From an uncultured Spirochaetaceae bacterium (GTDB lineage: Bacteria; Spirochaetota; Spirochaetia; SZUA-6; CAZLRN01): DNA of 37,566 nt. Positions within the stretch are counted from its first letter, which is position 1. Each line of letters opens with the position of its first letter. Below the pieces are notes generated by a model. The model did no database searches. It was not told the DNA's origin and saw only the letters and a list, made by a program, of their open reading frames with translations. Below are positions 24,458 through 37,566 of this stretch, piece after piece. The translations under genes were made by a program, and so were the position numbers. The stretch is from positions 1-37,566 of the forward strand of contig CBDUZM010000001.1 in assembly GCA_965371685.1 (NCBI GenBank). The letters are read 5' to 3'.

Positions 24458-25252
24458 ATGAACAGCGAAAAGGCACAAGAAACATTGGATTGGCTCATAG
24501 ACAGGCTGATTTACCAGGAGGAGCTGCCCGGGACCCTGACCAGGCTGATCCTGCAGCCGCCTGCCGGCCCCATGCAGAAATGGAGCTTGATGAATCAGCT
24601 CATGGTGCGGACACATGGCTATCAGGAAGCCAGGGGATTCAGGCAGTGGCAGCAGGTCAAGCGGTATGTGAAGAAAGGTATGAAGGCTGTCTACATCCTG
24701 GGCCCGATCATGATCCCGGTCAAGGAAGAGGACGAGACAGGGGAAAAGAAGACAAAGCTCGTCGGGTTCAAGGCCATACCTGTTTTCGGCTATGAGCAGA
24801 CAGAAGGGGAAGAGCTTCAGGAATATAACCAGAGACGCCACATCTCAGAATCCCTTCCGCATCTCCCCCTGGCTAACATTGCGTCGGATCTCGGCATCGA
24901 AGTCAAGGCCGATTTCACACACAACGGCGAGGCCGGCTATTTCCAGCCCTCGGACAGGATCATCGGAATCTGCACCGACTCCCAGCAGACCTTCCTCCAT
25001 GAGATCAGCCACGCGATTGATTACAAGTTAGGTAATAACAGCAGCCGTGAGGAAGGAGAGGTTGTGGCCGAGCTCTCAGCCTGCTTCCTGGCTCACATCC
25101 TGAGGCTTTCGGCAAACATGAAATATACGCAGAATTATATCCGCTCCTGGAGCGGCCGGCAGCACGCTGGGGTCGCCATCGGCCGGGAAATCGACCGGGT
25201 AAAGGCGATCTACGATTTCTGCAGCCGACACATCGAAGAGCAGGCAGCCTGA
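24458..25252 (+). CDS. ardC: ArdC-like antirestriction protein (ssDNA-binding N-domain + HExxH metalloprotease domain)
   Basis: The N-domain ...GFRQWQQVKRYVKKGMKAVYILGP... is DUF1738-like. The C-domain has FLHEISHAIDY (HExxH). Confidence 0.75.
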   Translation: MNSEKAQETLDWLIDRLIYQEELPGTLTRLILQPPAGPMQKWSLMNQLMVRTHGYQEARGFRQWQQVKRYVKKGMKAVYILGPIMIPVKEEDETGEKKTKLVGFKAIPVFGYEQTEGEELQEYNQRRHISESLPHLPLANIASDLGIEVKADFTHNGEAGYFQPSDRIIGICTDSQQTFLHEISHAIDYKLGNNSSREEGEVVAELSACFLAHILRLSANMKYTQNYIRSWSGRQHAGVAIGREIDRVKAIYDFCSRHIEEQAA

Positions 25253-31390: not shown

Positions 31391-31427
31391 ATCAATTTTG
31401 GCGCTGACACCAAAAAGGAGAAAAGTC

Positions 31428-32933
31428 ATGGGAGAAGAAATTCGGAACATCACCCTGGACAGCATCGTTCCTCATCCGGGGAACAGGCGTGTGGGGGGAT
31501 TCGATCAGGCCAAGCTCGAGGAGCTGGCGCTTTCTATCGAAGCGGTGGGCGTCCAGCAGCCGGCGGTAATCAGGCCGATAATCCGGCGTCTGAAGGAAGA
31601 TAAGATGTATCAGCTCGTCACCGGAGAGCGGCGCTGGCGGGCGGCCAGGATAGCCGGCATGGCAGCCCTCCCCTGCGTGATCCGAGAGATAAGCGACGAA
31701 GCGGTCCTGAAGATCCAGACGATCGAGAACCTCCAGCGGGAAGACATTCATCCCCTGGACGAGGCGGAGGGCTACCGGCGGCTCATCGAAGAGGCTGGTT
31801 ACGACGTGGAGCATCTGGCCAAAGATGTGGGAAAATCCATTTCCTATATCTATAGACGTCTGAAGCTGCGCGAACTATCCGACAAGACACGCCAGGATTT
31901 CATAGAAAATAAGATGACTACAGAACATGCAATCCTCATCGCCCGAATTCCGGAAGAGCAACAGAAGAAATGCCTTGATTATATCTCAACCTATAGGGGT
32001 GGGTGTACGGATATTTCTGTTAGAAATCTTTCCAATTTTATCAATGGGGAATTTCTTTTAGATCTCAGCGCAGCATCCTTCAAGAAGGACGATGAGAAGC
32101 TATATCCGAAAGCCGGCGCATGTGTCGATTGCAAGAAACGAACAGGCCATAATCCCGATCTCTTCGAAGATCTCAAAGGGAAGGATCACTGCCTGGACTC
32201 GAAATGCTTCAACCATAAGCTCGACGAGATGATCAAACGTGGGCAGCGAGAACTCGAGGGTGAGGATCATTACGAGGTATACAAGGATTGGGTGGGCAAT
32301 CCTAAAAAGGAAGCGCTAAACGTATACGATTGGGAGGAATGCAAAAAGAAGGATGAAGGGGCCAAGCCGGCGCTGATCATCAGCGGAGTCCAACGGGGCC
32401 GGCGCACATATGCCAAGAAACGTGAACAAACTACATACAGCAGATTCGAGAATCCGGAAGATGAAGCGGAATGGAAAAAAGAGCAGTATGAGAGAGAGCT
32501 CAAGATTTCCGAGAATACAATCCTGAACACAAAGATCCATGACCAACTCATACTTCAGTATCGATTAGCAGAGAAGAAATGGGACAGGAATCTCGCTCTC
32601 TGCATCATCTTCCAATTAAAGGATATTTTATGGGGCGTGGATATTGACGAATTTTTAGAAAAATATTTCGTCCAGCTTCCGGAGAACTATGATGATTCGC
32701 AGCTGCAGGAGATTATGGAAAAACTTCCGGACGAAGATCTGGAAATGATTACCATCGAAATGCTCATACAGGGCGAAACGTTCACCAATCACGAGAGAAT
32801 GGAAGAAACCTTATTGTATCGATGGGCTCAGAATCGGAGCATCGATGTGAAAGCCTTACAAAAAAGCGCCAGGGAAGAGGCGGAAAAAAAGCTGGCCGAG
32901 AAAGAGGAGCCTGAAAAAAATGACGAAGCTTGA
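31428..32933 (+). CDS. parB: ParB/Spo0J-family protein (CTPase-fold N-domain) with a Cys-rich middle region
   Basis: IVPHPGNRR...LALSIEAVGVQQPAVIRP...YQLVTGERRWRAARIAG...IQTIENLQREDIHPLDEAEGY are the ParB boxes I-III. AAGGAG SD precedes ATG 31428. Confidence 0.8.
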   Translation: MGEEIRNITLDSIVPHPGNRRVGGFDQAKLEELALSIEAVGVQQPAVIRPIIRRLKEDKMYQLVTGERRWRAARIAGMAALPCVIREISDEAVLKIQTIENLQREDIHPLDEAEGYRRLIEEAGYDVEHLAKDVGKSISYIYRRLKLRELSDKTRQDFIENKMTTEHAILIARIPEEQQKKCLDYISTYRGGCTDISVRNLSNFINGEFLLDLSAASFKKDDEKLYPKAGACVDCKKRTGHNPDLFEDLKGKDHCLDSKCFNHKLDEMIKRGQRELEGEDHYEVYKDWVGNPKKEALNVYDWEECKKKDEGAKPALIISGVQRGRRTYAKKREQTTYSRFENPEDEAEWKKEQYERELKISENTILNTKIHDQLILQYRLAEKKWDRNLALCIIFQLKDILWGVDIDEFLEKYFVQLPENYDDSQLQEIMEKLPDEDLEMITIEMLIQGETFTNHERMEETLLYRWAQNRSIDVKALQKSAREEAEKKLAEKEEPEKNDEA

Positions 32934-33146: not shown

Positions 33147-34112
33147 GTGGCACGGCCGGAACGTCATGACGCAGATTATTTTCCATTTTATTCCAAGGAC
33201 GGAAGGACGCTCTTTCTCCTGCAGGATAGATTCGGTTTGGAGGGGATCGGTTTTTTCACGAATGTTTGCCGTTTTCTTTGTGAGACTCCTGATCATCATG
33301 TATGCATCCAGGATGATTCGGACAGGATGTATTTTTATGCCAAGATCGGCATCGAAGAAAAGAAAGGAGAGGCCATGCTTGATCTCATGGCGAAAACTGA
33401 AAAGATCGATCCGGATCTCTGGGACAAGAAAGTCATCGCATCGGAAGCCTTCCTGGAAAGCCTGGCAGCTTTGTATGAAAGACGGTCCAATGAGTGCATT
33501 ACTATTGAGGAAATAAGGAAACGGTATGATGAAACTTCCCGGGAGAACATGATCGACAATGAGGATTTACGGGAACAGAAACCCACTTCCGAGGAGGTTT
33601 CCGGGGACATAAACCCCGTAAATGAGGATTACCGGGTACATAAACCCACTTGCGACGGGGTTTCCGGGGACAATAACCCACAAAGTAAAGTAAAGAAGAG
33701 TAAAGTAAAGAAGAGTAAAGTAAAGAATATCAAAAACCTCACGCCGAAAACGGCGTCTTCTGAAGAATCTTCTATTTTCAAAAGAGCTCAGATTCTCATG
33801 GAAGAGATCCACGGAGACACATATCTGAATTACAAAAAGGAGGCGCCGTGCCTTAAGAGATTCATCGAGCAGGTATCCAAGAAATCAAAACATGATCCAT
33901 GGGAGTTGATTGAAGCCATGATCTACCAGTTTGCCGAAATGAAGCAGCATGATCGAACTTCCAAAGGATATTGGCGTACCATGGATTTCACGCCGTGTAA
34001 ACTATTGTCCCATGCAGAAAATATTTATGAGCAATTTAAGCAGCGGACGAAAGAAGAAAAATTAACCAGTGAAGATAAGGAGCTGATAAAACGGCTATGG
34101 GGCGGGGGATAA
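33147..34112 (+). CDS. DUF4373-type replisome organiser / replication initiation-like protein
   Basis: N-terminal DADYFPFYSKDGRTLFLLQDRFGLEGIGFFTNVCRFL (Lin1244/Lin1753-like). GTG start after GGAGGGGA. Contains internal DNA repeats. Confidence 0.65.
   Translation: MARPERHDADYFPFYSKDGRTLFLLQDRFGLEGIGFFTNVCRFLCETPDHHVCIQDDSDRMYFYAKIGIEEKKGEAMLDLMAKTEKIDPDLWDKKVIASEAFLESLAALYERRSNECITIEEIRKRYDETSRENMIDNEDLREQKPTSEEVSGDINPVNEDYRVHKPTCDGVSGDNNPQSKVKKSKVKKSKVKNIKNLTPKTASSEESSIFKRAQILMEEIHGDTYLNYKKEAPCLKRFIEQVSKKSKHDPWELIEAMIYQFAEMKQHDRTSKGYWRTMDFTPCKLLSHAENIYEQFKQRTKEEKLTSEDKELIKRLWGGG
33558..33728. repeat. Intragenic tandem repeats: 2 x 63 bp then 3 x 15 bp (AGTAAAGTAAAGAAG); candidate origin iterons
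   Basis: The 63-bp units are 33558-33620 and 33621-33683. The 15-bp units are 33684-33698, 33699-33713 and 33714-33728. Confidence 0.85.
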
Positions 34113-34113
34113 T

Positions 34114-34632
34114 ATGGGAATCACGGTGCAAAAATATATGGAGTTGAGCGAAGGATATTTCGGGGAATATACTCCGGCTTTTTTCAGGGAGACCATCATA
34201 GGATATTTAGCTAAATGCAGTGATGTGTATAGAGAAAAACTTCTGAAAATCTTAGTCGACAACGAAAAACGCACTTATGGGCCGCCAGATATGGCAACGT
34301 TAAGAAGTTACGAAGAATGGATTCGCCCGGATATTAAGACCGTTCAGAAGTTGTTACCTCGGTCGGGAATTAAACCCGAAGATAGGACCTGGATGCAGAA
34401 ACACATCAAGCATTTATTAGATGCATTGGCTGCCGGCGACAAACAGAAATTAGACGAACTACATCTGATCGGGCTGAAAAGAGCCTGGAAAGATGGTGAT
34501 GAAAAACCAACGTTAGAAGCATTCGAGTTGGAGCGCCAGGGCCTGAATCTGAATAACGTGCCAGATTCGCTTAATGGTGATGAAAAACAAGACGAAATAA
34601 ACGATGAAATAAAATTACCTGGATTGGGATAG
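34114..34632 (+). CDS. Hypothetical protein (replication module)
   Basis: Compact ORF directly after the organiser gene. No recognisable motif. Confidence 0.5.
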   Translation: MGITVQKYMELSEGYFGEYTPAFFRETIIGYLAKCSDVYREKLLKILVDNEKRTYGPPDMATLRSYEEWIRPDIKTVQKLLPRSGIKPEDRTWMQKHIKHLLDALAAGDKQKLDELHLIGLKRAWKDGDEKPTLEAFELERQGLNLNNVPDSLNGDEKQDEINDEIKLPGLG

Positions 34633-34689: not shown

Positions 34690-35400
34690 ATGAAAAAAGC
34701 ATGGATCACTACGGAACAATGGCAGGCCTGCGCCTTTCATGTGGATTTGATTAAGCTGGAGAGGAAACCTTGCTACCTGGGCATGGAGCTCTCGGCTTTG
34801 CAGGATATTACGGCAGCGGCTCTCTGCTTTCCCCCGCAATCCTCAAGGGAACGCTATCAATTTCTCTTCAGATTTTTCATACCTTCAGAAATCATCATGG
34901 AAAGAGAGGGGAAGGAAAAGATCCCTTTTTCATCCTGGATCAACAAAGGCCTGGTGACCGCGACTCCGGGGAATGTCACAGACTATGATTTTATAGAGCA
35001 GCAGATCCTCGAGGATGCGGAGAGATATGAAATCCGGGGAATCGCATATGATTCCTGGAAGGCTCCTGAAATTGTCAATCATCTTATGAACAAAGGATTC
35101 ACAATGATCCAGATCAATCAGACCTTTTCAGGCATGGCCAGGCCGACAGAAATTTTTAAAAAGAAGGTCCTGACCCGGGTAATCGCCCATGACGGAAATC
35201 CGATTATGAACTGGATGATTTCATGCACGGAGCTGAAAAGAAATAAGCAAGGTGAGGAAATACCGAAGAATCTGCTCTATGAAAAAAGCTATAAAAAAGG
35301 CACACCGATCCGCGACTGGCCGGAAAACAAGAGCAGGATCAAGGGCGTGGTGGCTTCGATCATGGCCCTTGGAATAGCGGTAGGACCGACGGAGAAATAA
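34690..35400 (+). CDS. Stand-alone paralogue of the terL C-terminal RNase H-like nuclease domain (no ATPase domain)
   Basis: AAGGAGGA SD precedes ATG 34690. The product aligns over its whole length with terL residues from about CYVGMDLSASQDIT to VVASIIAIG. Examples: CYLGMELSALQDITAAALCFPPQS..RERYQFLFRFFIP and GNPIMNWMISCTE. Confidence 0.75.
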   Translation: MKKAWITTEQWQACAFHVDLIKLERKPCYLGMELSALQDITAAALCFPPQSSRERYQFLFRFFIPSEIIMEREGKEKIPFSSWINKGLVTATPGNVTDYDFIEQQILEDAERYEIRGIAYDSWKAPEIVNHLMNKGFTMIQINQTFSGMARPTEIFKKKVLTRVIAHDGNPIMNWMISCTELKRNKQGEEIPKNLLYEKSYKKGTPIRDWPENKSRIKGVVASIMALGIAVGPTEK

Positions 35401-35410
35401 GATCAATTCA

Positions 35411-35920
35411 ATGAAGATAACGGCCAAGACGATCCGCAATGTAATCGCTTGCAAGCATAGCAAGGACCTGATTGTTCCTGAATGCAAAACAGGACCGACC
35501 TGGTTCAACGATAATCTTCGAAAATTGGATGTATGGATCCTTCGGAGATCATGGACACAGTTCGCAACCATTGGCTACGAGATAAAGATAAGCCGATCGG
35601 ATTTTCTCAGGGATAAAAAATGGCCCGAATATCTTCAATACTGTCATGAGTTCTCCTTCGTCTGCCCCTGGGGAATAATTAATCCGGAAGAGATAACTGA
35701 TAGTTCTGTGGGCCTCTACTGGATCAGCAAGAACGGGAAGAGGCTCTTCATTCAGCGCAAGGCTGAACATAGAGAGATCGAGCTTCCGGATCTTCTGATC
35801 TATCACATTCTAATGAGCCGTGTTGTGGTGATCCGTCCATACGATATTTGGAAGATTAGAAGCGAAAGAGATCAATTGAAAAAAGAAATGGAGGATCTGA
35901 AGAAGGAAATGAATTTATGA
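35411..35920 (+). CDS. PD-(D/E)XK-type nuclease (MmcB-like)
   Basis: LDVWIL...IGYEIKISRSDF gives a D ... E-x-K arrangement. Confidence 0.55.
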   Translation: MKITAKTIRNVIACKHSKDLIVPECKTGPTWFNDNLRKLDVWILRRSWTQFATIGYEIKISRSDFLRDKKWPEYLQYCHEFSFVCPWGIINPEEITDSSVGLYWISKNGKRLFIQRKAEHREIELPDLLIYHILMSRVVVIRPYDIWKIRSERDQLKKEMEDLKKEMNL

Positions 35921-36876: not shown

Positions 36877-37274
36877 ATGAAAAAACTTTCGAGGAGTGGT
36901 CGATTCTGGAGCTGATGGGACATCGACGGCTTGCAGGACTGATTAAGGAGCAGACAATTGGCTCGGCATCGTTCATCCGCATTGACGTACCGGATGGGAA
37001 AGGCGGGTTTAGCGCCACGCAGTTCTACAATCCTGCAGCAGTCTATTGCATGACGCCGACATCAAAAGAAGTGGCCGAGCAGGTGGCAGCTCGAGACAGA
37101 CCGGAACCAGTGAGCCGATGGGAACTGCAGGCGCCGGATCCGGAAGAAAAAGTGTTGGAACAAAAAGACTACCACTACCTATGTATCGAATGCGGAGAAG
37201 AGATCAAAGGAAAGGTGCTCCTATATTCAAGTGGGCAAGCTTATCATTATCCCTCTTGCGAGGATCCAGAATAA
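36873..37274 (+). CDS. Hypothetical protein with C-terminal Zn-ribbon-like CxxC...C motif
   Basis: ATGA overlap. Contains ILELMGHRRLAGLIKE...FIRIDVP...FYNPAAVYCMTP. Confidence 0.55.
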   Translation: MNEKTFEEWSILELMGHRRLAGLIKEQTIGSASFIRIDVPDGKGGFSATQFYNPAAVYCMTPTSKEVAEQVAARDRPEPVSRWELQAPDPEEKVLEQKDYHYLCIECGEEIKGKVLLYSSGQAYHYPSCEDPE

Positions 37275-37566
37275 TGCTTGCTGTATTATGGAAAGGAAAA
37301 GCAATCTCAGTCAATCGTTGGCACGTGATACGAAATGTAAGGATCAGCGCTTCCCAGGAATATGAGAAATTCATCGACAGCCTGGCCTGGACGATCCGTG
37401 CGGAAACAAAAGGACTAAAATGCAGCAGCCTAAATCTCACTATCGACTCGAAGCTTAACCCCTGGTTCGATCATCAGAATCTGCTAAAACCGATCTGTGA
37501 TGCAGTGCAGCGATCGGGGCTTTTGGCGGATGACATGAAAATAAAGAGTATATGGCTGCAGGACGC
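37274..37566 (+). CDS. rusA: RusA-like Holliday junction resolvase, 5' part (runs off the window and continues at 1..149)
   Basis: TAATG overlap with the previous gene. Contains ...NPWFDHQNLLKPICDAVQRSGLLADD... Confidence 0.75.
   Translation, partial: MLAVLWKGKAISVNRWHVIRNVRISASQEYEKFIDSLAWTIRAETKGLKCSSLNLTIDSKLNPWFDHQNLLKPICDAVQRSGLLADDMKIKSIWLQD
37482..37566. repeat. Terminal overlap with bases 1-85 (82/85 identical)
   Basis: Direct comparison: mismatches at window positions 55, 75 and 83, with the first 54 nt identical. Confidence 0.95.

Follow-up and report, generated by a model that had tools for sequence, protein, structure and literature searches.

A stand-alone, diverged copy of the terminase nuclease domain in the early operon of a temperate HK97-like phage genome

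The contig CBDUZM010000001.1 of an uncultured Spirochaetaceae bacterium (assembly GCA_965371685.1; 37,566 nucleotides (nt), analysed at its whole length and called the window below) carries a phage genome in which the terminase large subunit (TerL) has its nuclease domain encoded twice, once in a full-length TerL and once as the product of a separate gene, termed here the stand-alone (SA) gene. Our comparative analyses indicated a single duplication of the 3' half of a terL belonging to this phage lineage; the copy now lies in an early replication/recombination operon, where it has kept a ribosome-binding site (RBS) of its own. Since the duplication, the copy has shed its ATPase domain, linker and C-terminal tail, has been kept under purifying selection in at least four lineages, has changed from an acidic to a basic protein and has exchanged its third catalytic Asp for Glu. 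We tentatively suggest that the SA protein may be an exapted TerL nuclease domain that serves as an autonomous DNA-binding protein of the RNase H fold in the replication/recombination operon.

The SA protein is a TerL nuclease domain

The gene and its immediate features are as follows.
34690..35400, forward strand: stand-alone TerL-nuclease-domain gene, ATG start, 236 aa
34673..34679, forward strand: Shine-Dalgarno sequence AAGGAGG, 10 nt before the SA ATG
35290..35328, forward strand: 13-aa insertion YKKGTPIRDWPEN (residues 201-213), present in this genome only and predicted to be disordered (predicted local distance difference test, pLDDT, <50)

An earlier note on this DNA had described the product as aligning with the C-terminal nuclease domain of the phage's own TerL and as having no ATPase domain, and both statements hold. 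In a BLASTP comparison, SA residues 5-236 matched TerL residues 368-586 with 130/232 identities (56%), 72% positives, an E value of 6e-94 and a single 13-residue gap. At the nucleotide level, identity is 71.7% across 474 nt, reaches 82% in the best stretch of 60 nt and amounts to 67% when all aligned codons are counted. The protein matches Pfam PF20441 (TerL_nuclease) with 69.7 bits against a cut-off of 24, over model positions 72-256 of 286, and PHROG terminase families at 1e-51 and 7e-48. The Pfam search returned no ATPase domain (Walker A/B, PF03354), the open reading frame (ORF) beginning at the domain boundary. At the other end, the TerL tail extends about 9 residues past the end of SA and is absent from it. 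The Shine-Dalgarno sequence that the note had assigned to the gene is also present, whereas the insertion, put at about 20 aa, proved to be 13 aa net, with the flanking residues substituted instead.

The fold was examined by structure prediction, as the note had proposed. The AlphaFold (AF2) model, built on 16 sequences, has a pLDDT of 88.2 and a predicted template modelling score of 0.87, with low confidence only at residues 198-213, in the insertion, and its modelled strands 182-184 and 190-192 form the terminase-specific beta-hairpin of the RNase H-like fold. The HK97 TerL nuclease fold was recovered by Foldseek, the top match being HK97 TerL 6Z6D (E 2.4e-17, TMq 0.81), followed by the TerL nucleases of G20c, P74-26, D6E and E217; the list also contains the Avs3-terminase complex 8DGC.

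An old, rare family under purifying selection

Five further metagenome contigs, from samples other than that of the window, carry SA-type genes: L001 (P0002), L084, L003 (P0003), L086 and L002 (P0005). Together with the window these represent four lineages (the window, L001/L084, L003/L086 and L002). All of the family proteins begin with MK(K/N/G)(A/K)WI, which is the first helix of the nuclease domain, the arrangement GGAGG-spacer-ATGAAA is kept upstream in all lineages, and the complete members end about 9-10 residues short of the conserved hydrophobic tail of TerL (EVFVV, EIWAI and similar). The order initiator, 172-aa gene, SA, MmcB-like gene is conserved: the upstream 172-aa gene is common to the window, L001/L084 and L003/L086 (64-68% identity), the downstream MmcB-like gene is common to the window and L001 (76% identity), and in L002 the SA cassette, with its own RBS, stands behind a different gene. 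An assembly chimera or duplication artefact was rejected on the grounds of this recurrence in other samples, with the RBS conserved and the neighbours mostly so.

The 172-aa gene and the SA gene are in frame with each other in every lineage, with spacers of 57, 27 and 15 nt. A read-through fusion of the two ORFs was considered and rejected, as L001/L084 have two stops, all three kinds of stop codon occur, and TAA, TGA and TAG are all stops in the window. The in-frame layout would thus be an inherited stop-Shine-Dalgarno-ATG junction, and read-through is unlikely.

In neighbour-joining trees, the four SA lineages formed one clade in 100/100 bootstraps, nested in the TerL subfamily that holds the window TerL and next to that protein. 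The window SA protein is 58% identical to its own TerL and 57-59% identical to the TerLs of related phages; the SA proteins share 55-63% identity among themselves, and the related TerL domains 64-86%. This pattern points to a single, old duplication, after which evolution was faster and gene conversion played no part. We accordingly rejected the idea that the SA gene arose recently from the terL of this phage or undergoes gene conversion with it, given that own-TerL identity equals related-TerL identity and that the clade is monophyletic. The note's description of the gene as a diverged copy of the nuclease domain is thereby refined: the SA gene is not a copy of the present terL of this phage but belongs to an older family of four lineages.

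Two pairs of closely related variants allowed the ratio of non-synonymous to synonymous substitution rates (dN/dS) to be estimated.
L001 vs L084: 5 synonymous and 3 non-synonymous changes, dN/dS 0.156
L003 vs L086: 12 synonymous and 6 non-synonymous changes, dN/dS 0.11
The pooled binomial p against neutrality is 7.5e-7. As dN/dS is purifying in both pairs, the SA gene is maintained; the same had been argued in the note against an assembly duplication, and the independent contigs with shared gene order, the conserved RBS and the dN/dS of ~0.1-0.16 agree with it.

Members of the family are scarce. In an exhaustive hidden Markov model search of 1.84 billion representatives, the SA family appeared as a single 50%-identity cluster (446 bits), followed at 270 bits by ordinary TerLs. 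Apart from L084 and L086, the searches for further members in IMG/VR, JGI metagenomes and GTDB genomes returned full TerLs only, and neither IMG/VR nor the GTDB genomes held a member. Among 50,697 GenBank phage records there was no relative of SA above 36% identity, and a second match within a record almost never occurred (1359 places in 1357 records). When the contig index was queried for an exact match to the SA protein of the window, no record was returned. Literature searches yielded no description of a stand-alone or paralogous terminase nuclease gene; the domain family and split terL genes are already known, and it is for a separate, diverged and selected TerL-nuclease paralogue outside the packaging module that we found no earlier description.

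Departure from the catalytic triad of TerL nucleases

The catalytic centre of HK97 TerL consists of D302, D388 and D471, and K463, just after the beta-hairpin, reaches into it (PMC9410871). These residues were mapped through a HMMER alignment of the window TerL to 6Z6D, with a chain numbering offset of +10, which gave the following correspondences.
34786..34788, forward strand: catalytic site 1, codon GAG, Glu33, at the end of beta-1; HK97 D302, window TerL D396 (GMD396LS to GME33LS)
35050..35052, forward strand: catalytic site 2, codon GAT, Asp121; HK97 D388, window TerL D484 (GFD484PW to AYD121SW); kept throughout the SA family
35341..35343, forward strand: catalytic site 3, codon AAG, Lys218, at the start of the last helix; HK97 D471, window TerL D568 (RID568G to RIK218G)
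35269..35280, forward strand: residues 194-197, NLLY, in place of the K-P-x-R/K segment after the beta-hairpin

The three motif changes listed in the earlier note (GMDLS to GMELS, RIDGVVA to RIKGVVA, and GFDPW to AYDSW with the Asp kept) are all seen in the BLASTP alignment, and the alignment to 6Z6D, together with the published HK97 catalytic residues, places them at the metal ligands. In addition, Asn194 replaces a Lys that is conserved in 91% of TerLs, and Tyr197 occupies the HK97 K463 'switch' position, where the window TerL has R560, such that two basic residues after the beta-hairpin are lost in the window copy; the disordered insertion lies just before Lys218.

A census of 217 PF20441 proteins shows how unusual these changes are. 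The triad is Asp-Asp-Asp in 190/190 complete TerL domains and in no SA family member; 19 proteins have a gap at one site, most of those without D-D-D being truncated, and triads other than D-D-D were seen only in the SA family (EDK, DDE, DDE and EDE) and in four other proteins, P0106, P0156, P0141 and P0013. With Glu33, Asp121 and Lys218 in the window copy and D/E-D-E in its sisters, the family thus departs from the three-aspartate pattern of TerL nucleases. Site 3 is Glu (GAG or GAA) in the three sister lineages, and the AAG of the window is a single G-to-A transition from GAG. Among 34 positions conserved in at least 85% of TerLs, 3 are changed in P0002, 2 in P0003 and 7 in the window copy, five of the latter (33, 185, 189, 194 and 218) being around the active site and the hairpin.

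Because the window copy combines an E-D-K site with the loss of the Lys/Arg pair after the hairpin and a 13-aa disordered loop beside the active site, two-metal catalysis is most probably abolished in it. Lys218 would pair with Glu33 and Asp121 where a metal ion would otherwise sit, and the protein would work, if at all, as a DNA- or partner-binding pseudo-nuclease and not as a cutter. The family as a whole keeps a carboxylate triad and nearly the whole conserved nuclease core, for which reason its ancestral job probably still used the metal site. The family may represent a DDE-type RNase H-like nuclease in retuned or attenuated form, and the D-D-E relatives may be RuvC-like, structure-specific nucleases of reduced or retuned activity. 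Of the two terms offered in the earlier note, 'inactive' fits the window copy and 'retuned' may fit the family.

Two other explanations bear on the same residues. The window copy might still be an active stand-alone nuclease, engaged in host DNA degradation or in branch or end processing, with catalysis rescued for example by Asp210 or Glu213 of the insertion. The TerL nuclease domains of T4, SPP1, P22 and G20c cut DNA in vitro when isolated, and the copy has acidic residues at sites 1 and 2, retains Asp39 and lies among genes of nuclease fold. However, the loss of one carboxylate normally abolishes activity in RNase H-like enzymes, and here a Lys stands where every complete TerL domain has Asp, two more conserved basic residues are gone, and the insertion that would have to supply the rescue is predicted to be disordered, which together make this explanation quite unlikely. 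Alternatively, the window copy could be a decaying relic without present function, its relatives being functional. In favour of decay are the clustering of its changes at TerL-conserved positions about the active site, the unique disordered insertion and K218, and the occurrence of this lineage on a single contig. Nevertheless, the 236-codon ORF is intact, its RBS is strong, the conserved flanking genes are intact, the AF2 model is confident outside the insertion, and the divergence of the copy from its sisters (56-63% identity) is no greater than that of the sisters from one another (55-61%); we therefore regard decay as very unlikely.

Genomic setting and change of charge

The window is a complete, circularly assembled genome of ~37.5 kb, its final 85 nt repeating the initial 85 nt with 82/85 identical (1-85 vs 37482-37566); the three mismatched nt point to variants within the population having been merged where the ends meet. 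Head and packaging genes together with an integrase identify a temperate, HK97-like phage with a long rightward early operon, inside which the SA gene is located. The genes that matter for its interpretation are listed below.
3249-3635, forward strand: HNH endonuclease
3689-4153, forward strand: small terminase (Terminase_4)
4128..5915, forward strand: full-length TerL (ATPase and nuclease), likely start ATG 4143; the nuclease domain at ~5229-5885 is the paralogous region
5912-7930: portal, 672 aa
25972-27081: integrase
33147..34112, forward strand: replication-initiator-like protein (phrog_2562)
34114..34632, forward strand: protein of unknown function, 172 aa, upstream neighbour of the SA gene
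35411..35920, forward strand: MmcB-like PD-(D/E)XK protein, directly downstream of the SA gene (Pfam 25.9 bits against a cut-off of 22; phrog_5429 'DNA repair protein')
37274..37566 joined to 1..~148, forward strand: RusA-like gene, a 118-aa ORF across the circular junction

The HNH endonuclease, small terminase, TerL, portal, S78 protease and HK97-type capsid constitute an HK97-type packaging module. A functional TerL is expected beside terS and portal; the SA gene lies instead between the initiator-like and MmcB-like genes, ~29 kb from terL (~6 kb via the circular junction) and outside the HNH-terS-terL-portal module at 3249-7930, and the ORF upstream of it is unrelated and ends in a stop codon. 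Within the initiator gene there are iteron-like tandem repeats (a 32-nt unit x3.8 at 33561-33681, or alternatively a 63-nt unit x1.9), followed by an AT-rich (AAAGT)n, 15-nt x2.9 run up to 33727. The repeats at 33558-33727 likely represent a replication origin ~1 kb upstream of the SA gene, which lies in a polycistronic early operon beside this putative origin. The initiator homologue of L086 has a repeated 'SSSTV' stretch at the place that matches the repeats of the window. Sequence analysis of the window found no own promoter, own terminator or foreign composition for the SA gene.

With regard to the neighbours, the earlier note had named a PD-(D/E)XK nuclease and RusA. The former is the MmcB-like gene, which scores above the Pfam cut-off; the RusA-like ORF has the C-terminal motif DHQNLLKPICDAVQRSGLLADDK and reaches 19.1 bits, below the cut-off of 22.8, so that its identity as RusA is plausible but weakly supported. 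The 172-aa neighbour gave an unusable single-sequence AF2 model (pLDDT 52), and PDB sequence searches with both neighbours of the SA gene returned nothing meaningful.

The charge of the protein has also reversed. SA family proteins have an isoelectric point (pI) of 8.2-9.3 and a net charge of +3 to +9, while TerL nuclease domains have a median pI of 5.26 (n=190) and the domain of the phage's own TerL a pI of 4.82 and a net charge of -8. A basic residue stands at nine positions (2, 53, 85, 86, 116, 135, 157, 193 and 232) in three or more of the four family members where the sister TerLs have none. The shift of pI from ~4.8 to 8.2-9.3 points to DNA binding, and as the ATPase domain is gone, a charge gain of ~13 units would be best explained by autonomous nucleic-acid binding. 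The basic surface would allow an RNase H-fold domain to bind DNA alone, without the ATPase domain, and the position behind replication genes, the nuclease-fold neighbours, the absence of an own promoter and the charge shift together suggest that the protein would act on phage DNA during replication or recombination. In structure, TerL nucleases come closest to RuvC (PMC10359639). A RuvC-like role fits the genomic context but is weakened for the window copy by its E-D-K site.

We consider an exapted, DNA-binding role in replication or recombination quite possible, and several points weigh against it. The extreme rarity of the family limits comparative inference. The basic surface could bind an acidic protein instead, for example the portal or the nuclease domain of TerL, which is acidic. 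Since the phage already has a PD-(D/E)XK nuclease and a weak RusA-like gene, a further nuclease for branch processing would seem redundant. Exchange of Asp for Glu at catalytic positions of RNase H-like enzymes often inactivates them, and the whole family may be non-catalytic. Finally, the window lineage is a single contig, and K218 could be a polymorphism or an error, in which case the protein would be E-D-E.

Alternatively, as a non-catalytic regulator or competitor of the packaging machine, the SA protein would be a TerL look-alike that binds the portal, TerS, HNH or TerL and tunes cos cleavage or motor assembly, either controlling the timing of its own phage's packaging or excluding related co-infecting phages in a dominant-negative manner. 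In the HK97 motor, the copied domain makes up the ring immediately beneath the portal, facing the end of the DNA (PMC10359639); the catalytic residues of SA are altered, its basic charge complements the acidic TerL domain, and its closest TerL relative is that of the phage's own lineage. Portal docking is nonetheless made less likely by the absence from SA of the C-terminal tail that all related TerLs have. In lambda, the C-terminal tail of gpA mediates prohead binding. The identity to the own TerL (58%) is no higher than that to related TerLs (57-59%), giving no sign of co-evolution or upkeep of mimicry, the early replication operon is not the position of a lysogeny-expressed moron, and in the sisters the triad is still acidic and almost every conserved nuclease residue is in place, for which a pure protein-binding decoy would have no need. 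In view of these points, a role in packaging appears unlikely, and we retain DNA binding in the replication/recombination operon as the preferred interpretation.

Several other genes in the window were recorded in passing. A radical S-adenosylmethionine protein (2196-3005; Pfam E 1.2e-12) lies directly upstream of the HNH-terS-terL module. ParB N-terminal-type domains occur in two proteins, one of 511 aa (31398-32933), which also has a ParB helix-turn-helix (HTH), and one of 194 aa (998-1582), which has a weak GmrSD_N match and matches PHROG methyltransferase/ParB families. In the portal (5912-7930), the Phage_portal domain covers residues 52-381, and the ~290-aa C-terminal part, without a Pfam match, has a Cys/His-rich motif at its end. 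An ArdC-N/zincin metallopeptidase-like protein is encoded at 24458-25252, near the lysogeny region (PHROG 'anti-restriction protein', 3.5e-14).

Other stand-alone and split TerL nuclease genes

Two further stand-alone genes came to light. P0106 (L193 4898-5722, 274 aa) is TerL-nuclease-like with a D-F-G triad and lies in the early operon of a high-GC temperate phage, in the order integrase, cro-like gene, HTH protein, P0106, four small genes and RusA. Its closest relative is the TerL P0071 (51%), with which it grouped in 99/100 bootstraps, and it never grouped with the SA family. The HTH protein before it (L193 4347-4901) has weak matches to Terminase_5 (gpP-like small-terminase HTH), HTH_23 and sigma-70 region 4 (E ~5e-4 to 2e-3), and it is curious to see a terS-like HTH paired with a TerL-nuclease-like protein in this early operon. 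P0156 (L194 8001-8807, 268 aa) has an H-D-D triad, a degenerate TPGN motif and an unrelated C-terminal extension, and is set among small ORFs, a phage-type N6 methyltransferase and a type I restriction-modification system. No close relatives of either were found, both being singletons. P0156 and P0106 each group with a different TerL and not with the SA family, which suggests independent origins; as all three group with different TerLs, the domain would have been captured at least 3 times.

Other short proteins with PF20441 alone, where checked, are the C-terminal halves of terL genes that have been split or frameshifted, situated between terS and portal with D-D-D and the tail intact. In normal packaging modules, L190 (477-2235), L191 (4875-6663) and L164 (4426-6197) each have an ATPase ORF and a nuclease ORF, with a 69-aa ORF between the halves in L190 and a frameshift in L164 (a Treponema metagenome-assembled genome); the cause of each split may be an intron or insert, a programmed frameshift or an assembly error. 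A split or frameshifted terL was rejected as an explanation of the SA gene, because its arrangement differs from that of L164, L190 and L191 and no ATPase half lies upstream in the window, L001, L003, L084 or L086.

The recurrence of stand-alone, active-site-degenerate TerL nuclease genes, which arose at least 3 times independently, also bears on anti-defence. As a decoy, the SA protein would occupy sensors of the TerL fold (Avs1-3, Upx-like) early without permitting their oligomerisation. The nuclease domain of native terminase is bound extensively by SeAvs3, and some isolated nuclease domains can activate KpAvs2 (PMC13601566); in addition, 8DGC appears in the Foldseek list, and the window has other genes of anti-restriction type, such as that for the ArdC-like protein. 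On the other hand, the ATPase domain is what Avs2 and Upx mainly sense, and the active-site residues that Avs3 reads are altered in SA (PMC13601566). A free nuclease domain could trigger a sensor rather than block it, and the SA family is too rare for a broadly useful counter-defence. PADLOC returned no match for the SA gene, its neighbours, P0002 or P0005, and no anti-defence family matched. A decoy function is thus very unlikely. A broader hypothesis is that the TerL nuclease domain has been captured repeatedly (at least 3 times, in one subfamily) as an early-expressed, active-site-degenerate TerL mimic, acting as a sensor decoy or as a dominant-negative inhibitor of the packaging motors of competing phages; we give it little credence, although if true it would define a new class of phage 'self-mimic' counter-measures.

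Comparison with known systems

With HK97-type TerL nucleases (PF20441, 6Z6D), SA shares the RNase H-like fold, auxiliary beta-hairpin included (TM 0.81), and the catalytic positions correspond one to one. It differs in being encoded by a separate gene in the replication module, in lacking the ATPase domain, linker and tail, in being basic rather than acidic, and in having an E-D-K triad (D/E-D-E in the family) in place of the invariant D-D-D. The split terL halves (L190, L191 and L164, and PHROG 2699-type short 'TerL' entries) likewise yield products of ~220 aa with PF20441 only; however, they directly follow the ATPase half between terS and portal, keep D-D-D and the tail, and are parts of one terminase.

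A C-terminal-only large terminase product, UL15.5, is made beside the full-length protein in herpes simplex virus 1 (HSV-1); it is non-essential, cannot replace UL15 and is of unknown function (PMC2885020). Like SA, UL15.5 is a polypeptide of the C-terminal terminase part that is extra to the full-length enzyme, but it is an in-frame product of the same gene (exon II) with identical sequence, whereas SA is a separate, diverged gene (56%) with an altered active site. In phage T4, shorter gp17 products from internal starts, attributed to Franklin and Mosig, reportedly were proposed to act on DNA in recombination and packaging. These too are truncated large-terminase products beside the full-length enzyme; unlike SA, they are said to come from the same gene, with no diverged paralogue and with wild-type catalytic residues. 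With RuvC and DDE-type RNase H-like nucleases SA shares the fold class and a setting among recombination-type nucleases, and the D-D-E of the family has its last carboxylate on a helix, like that of DDE enzymes; the window copy, in contrast, is without the third carboxylate. Pfam and PHROGs returned terminase families only, and NCBIfam none, placing SA outside the RuvC and RusA families by sequence.

Significance

Tailed phages and herpesviruses share TerL as their hallmark enzyme, the nuclease domain of which is believed to function only within the packaging motor. If the mimic or decoy explanation were true, packaging proteins would be linked to the phage-host arms race over terminase-sensing immunity. 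For annotation pipelines, the SA family means that a PF20441 match is not always 'the terminase'. The window copy offers a natural 'nuclease-only', probably catalysis-dead variant for studying how the TerL nuclease binds DNA and is switched on and off, and the SA gene would show that the TerL nuclease domain can be exapted for another job.

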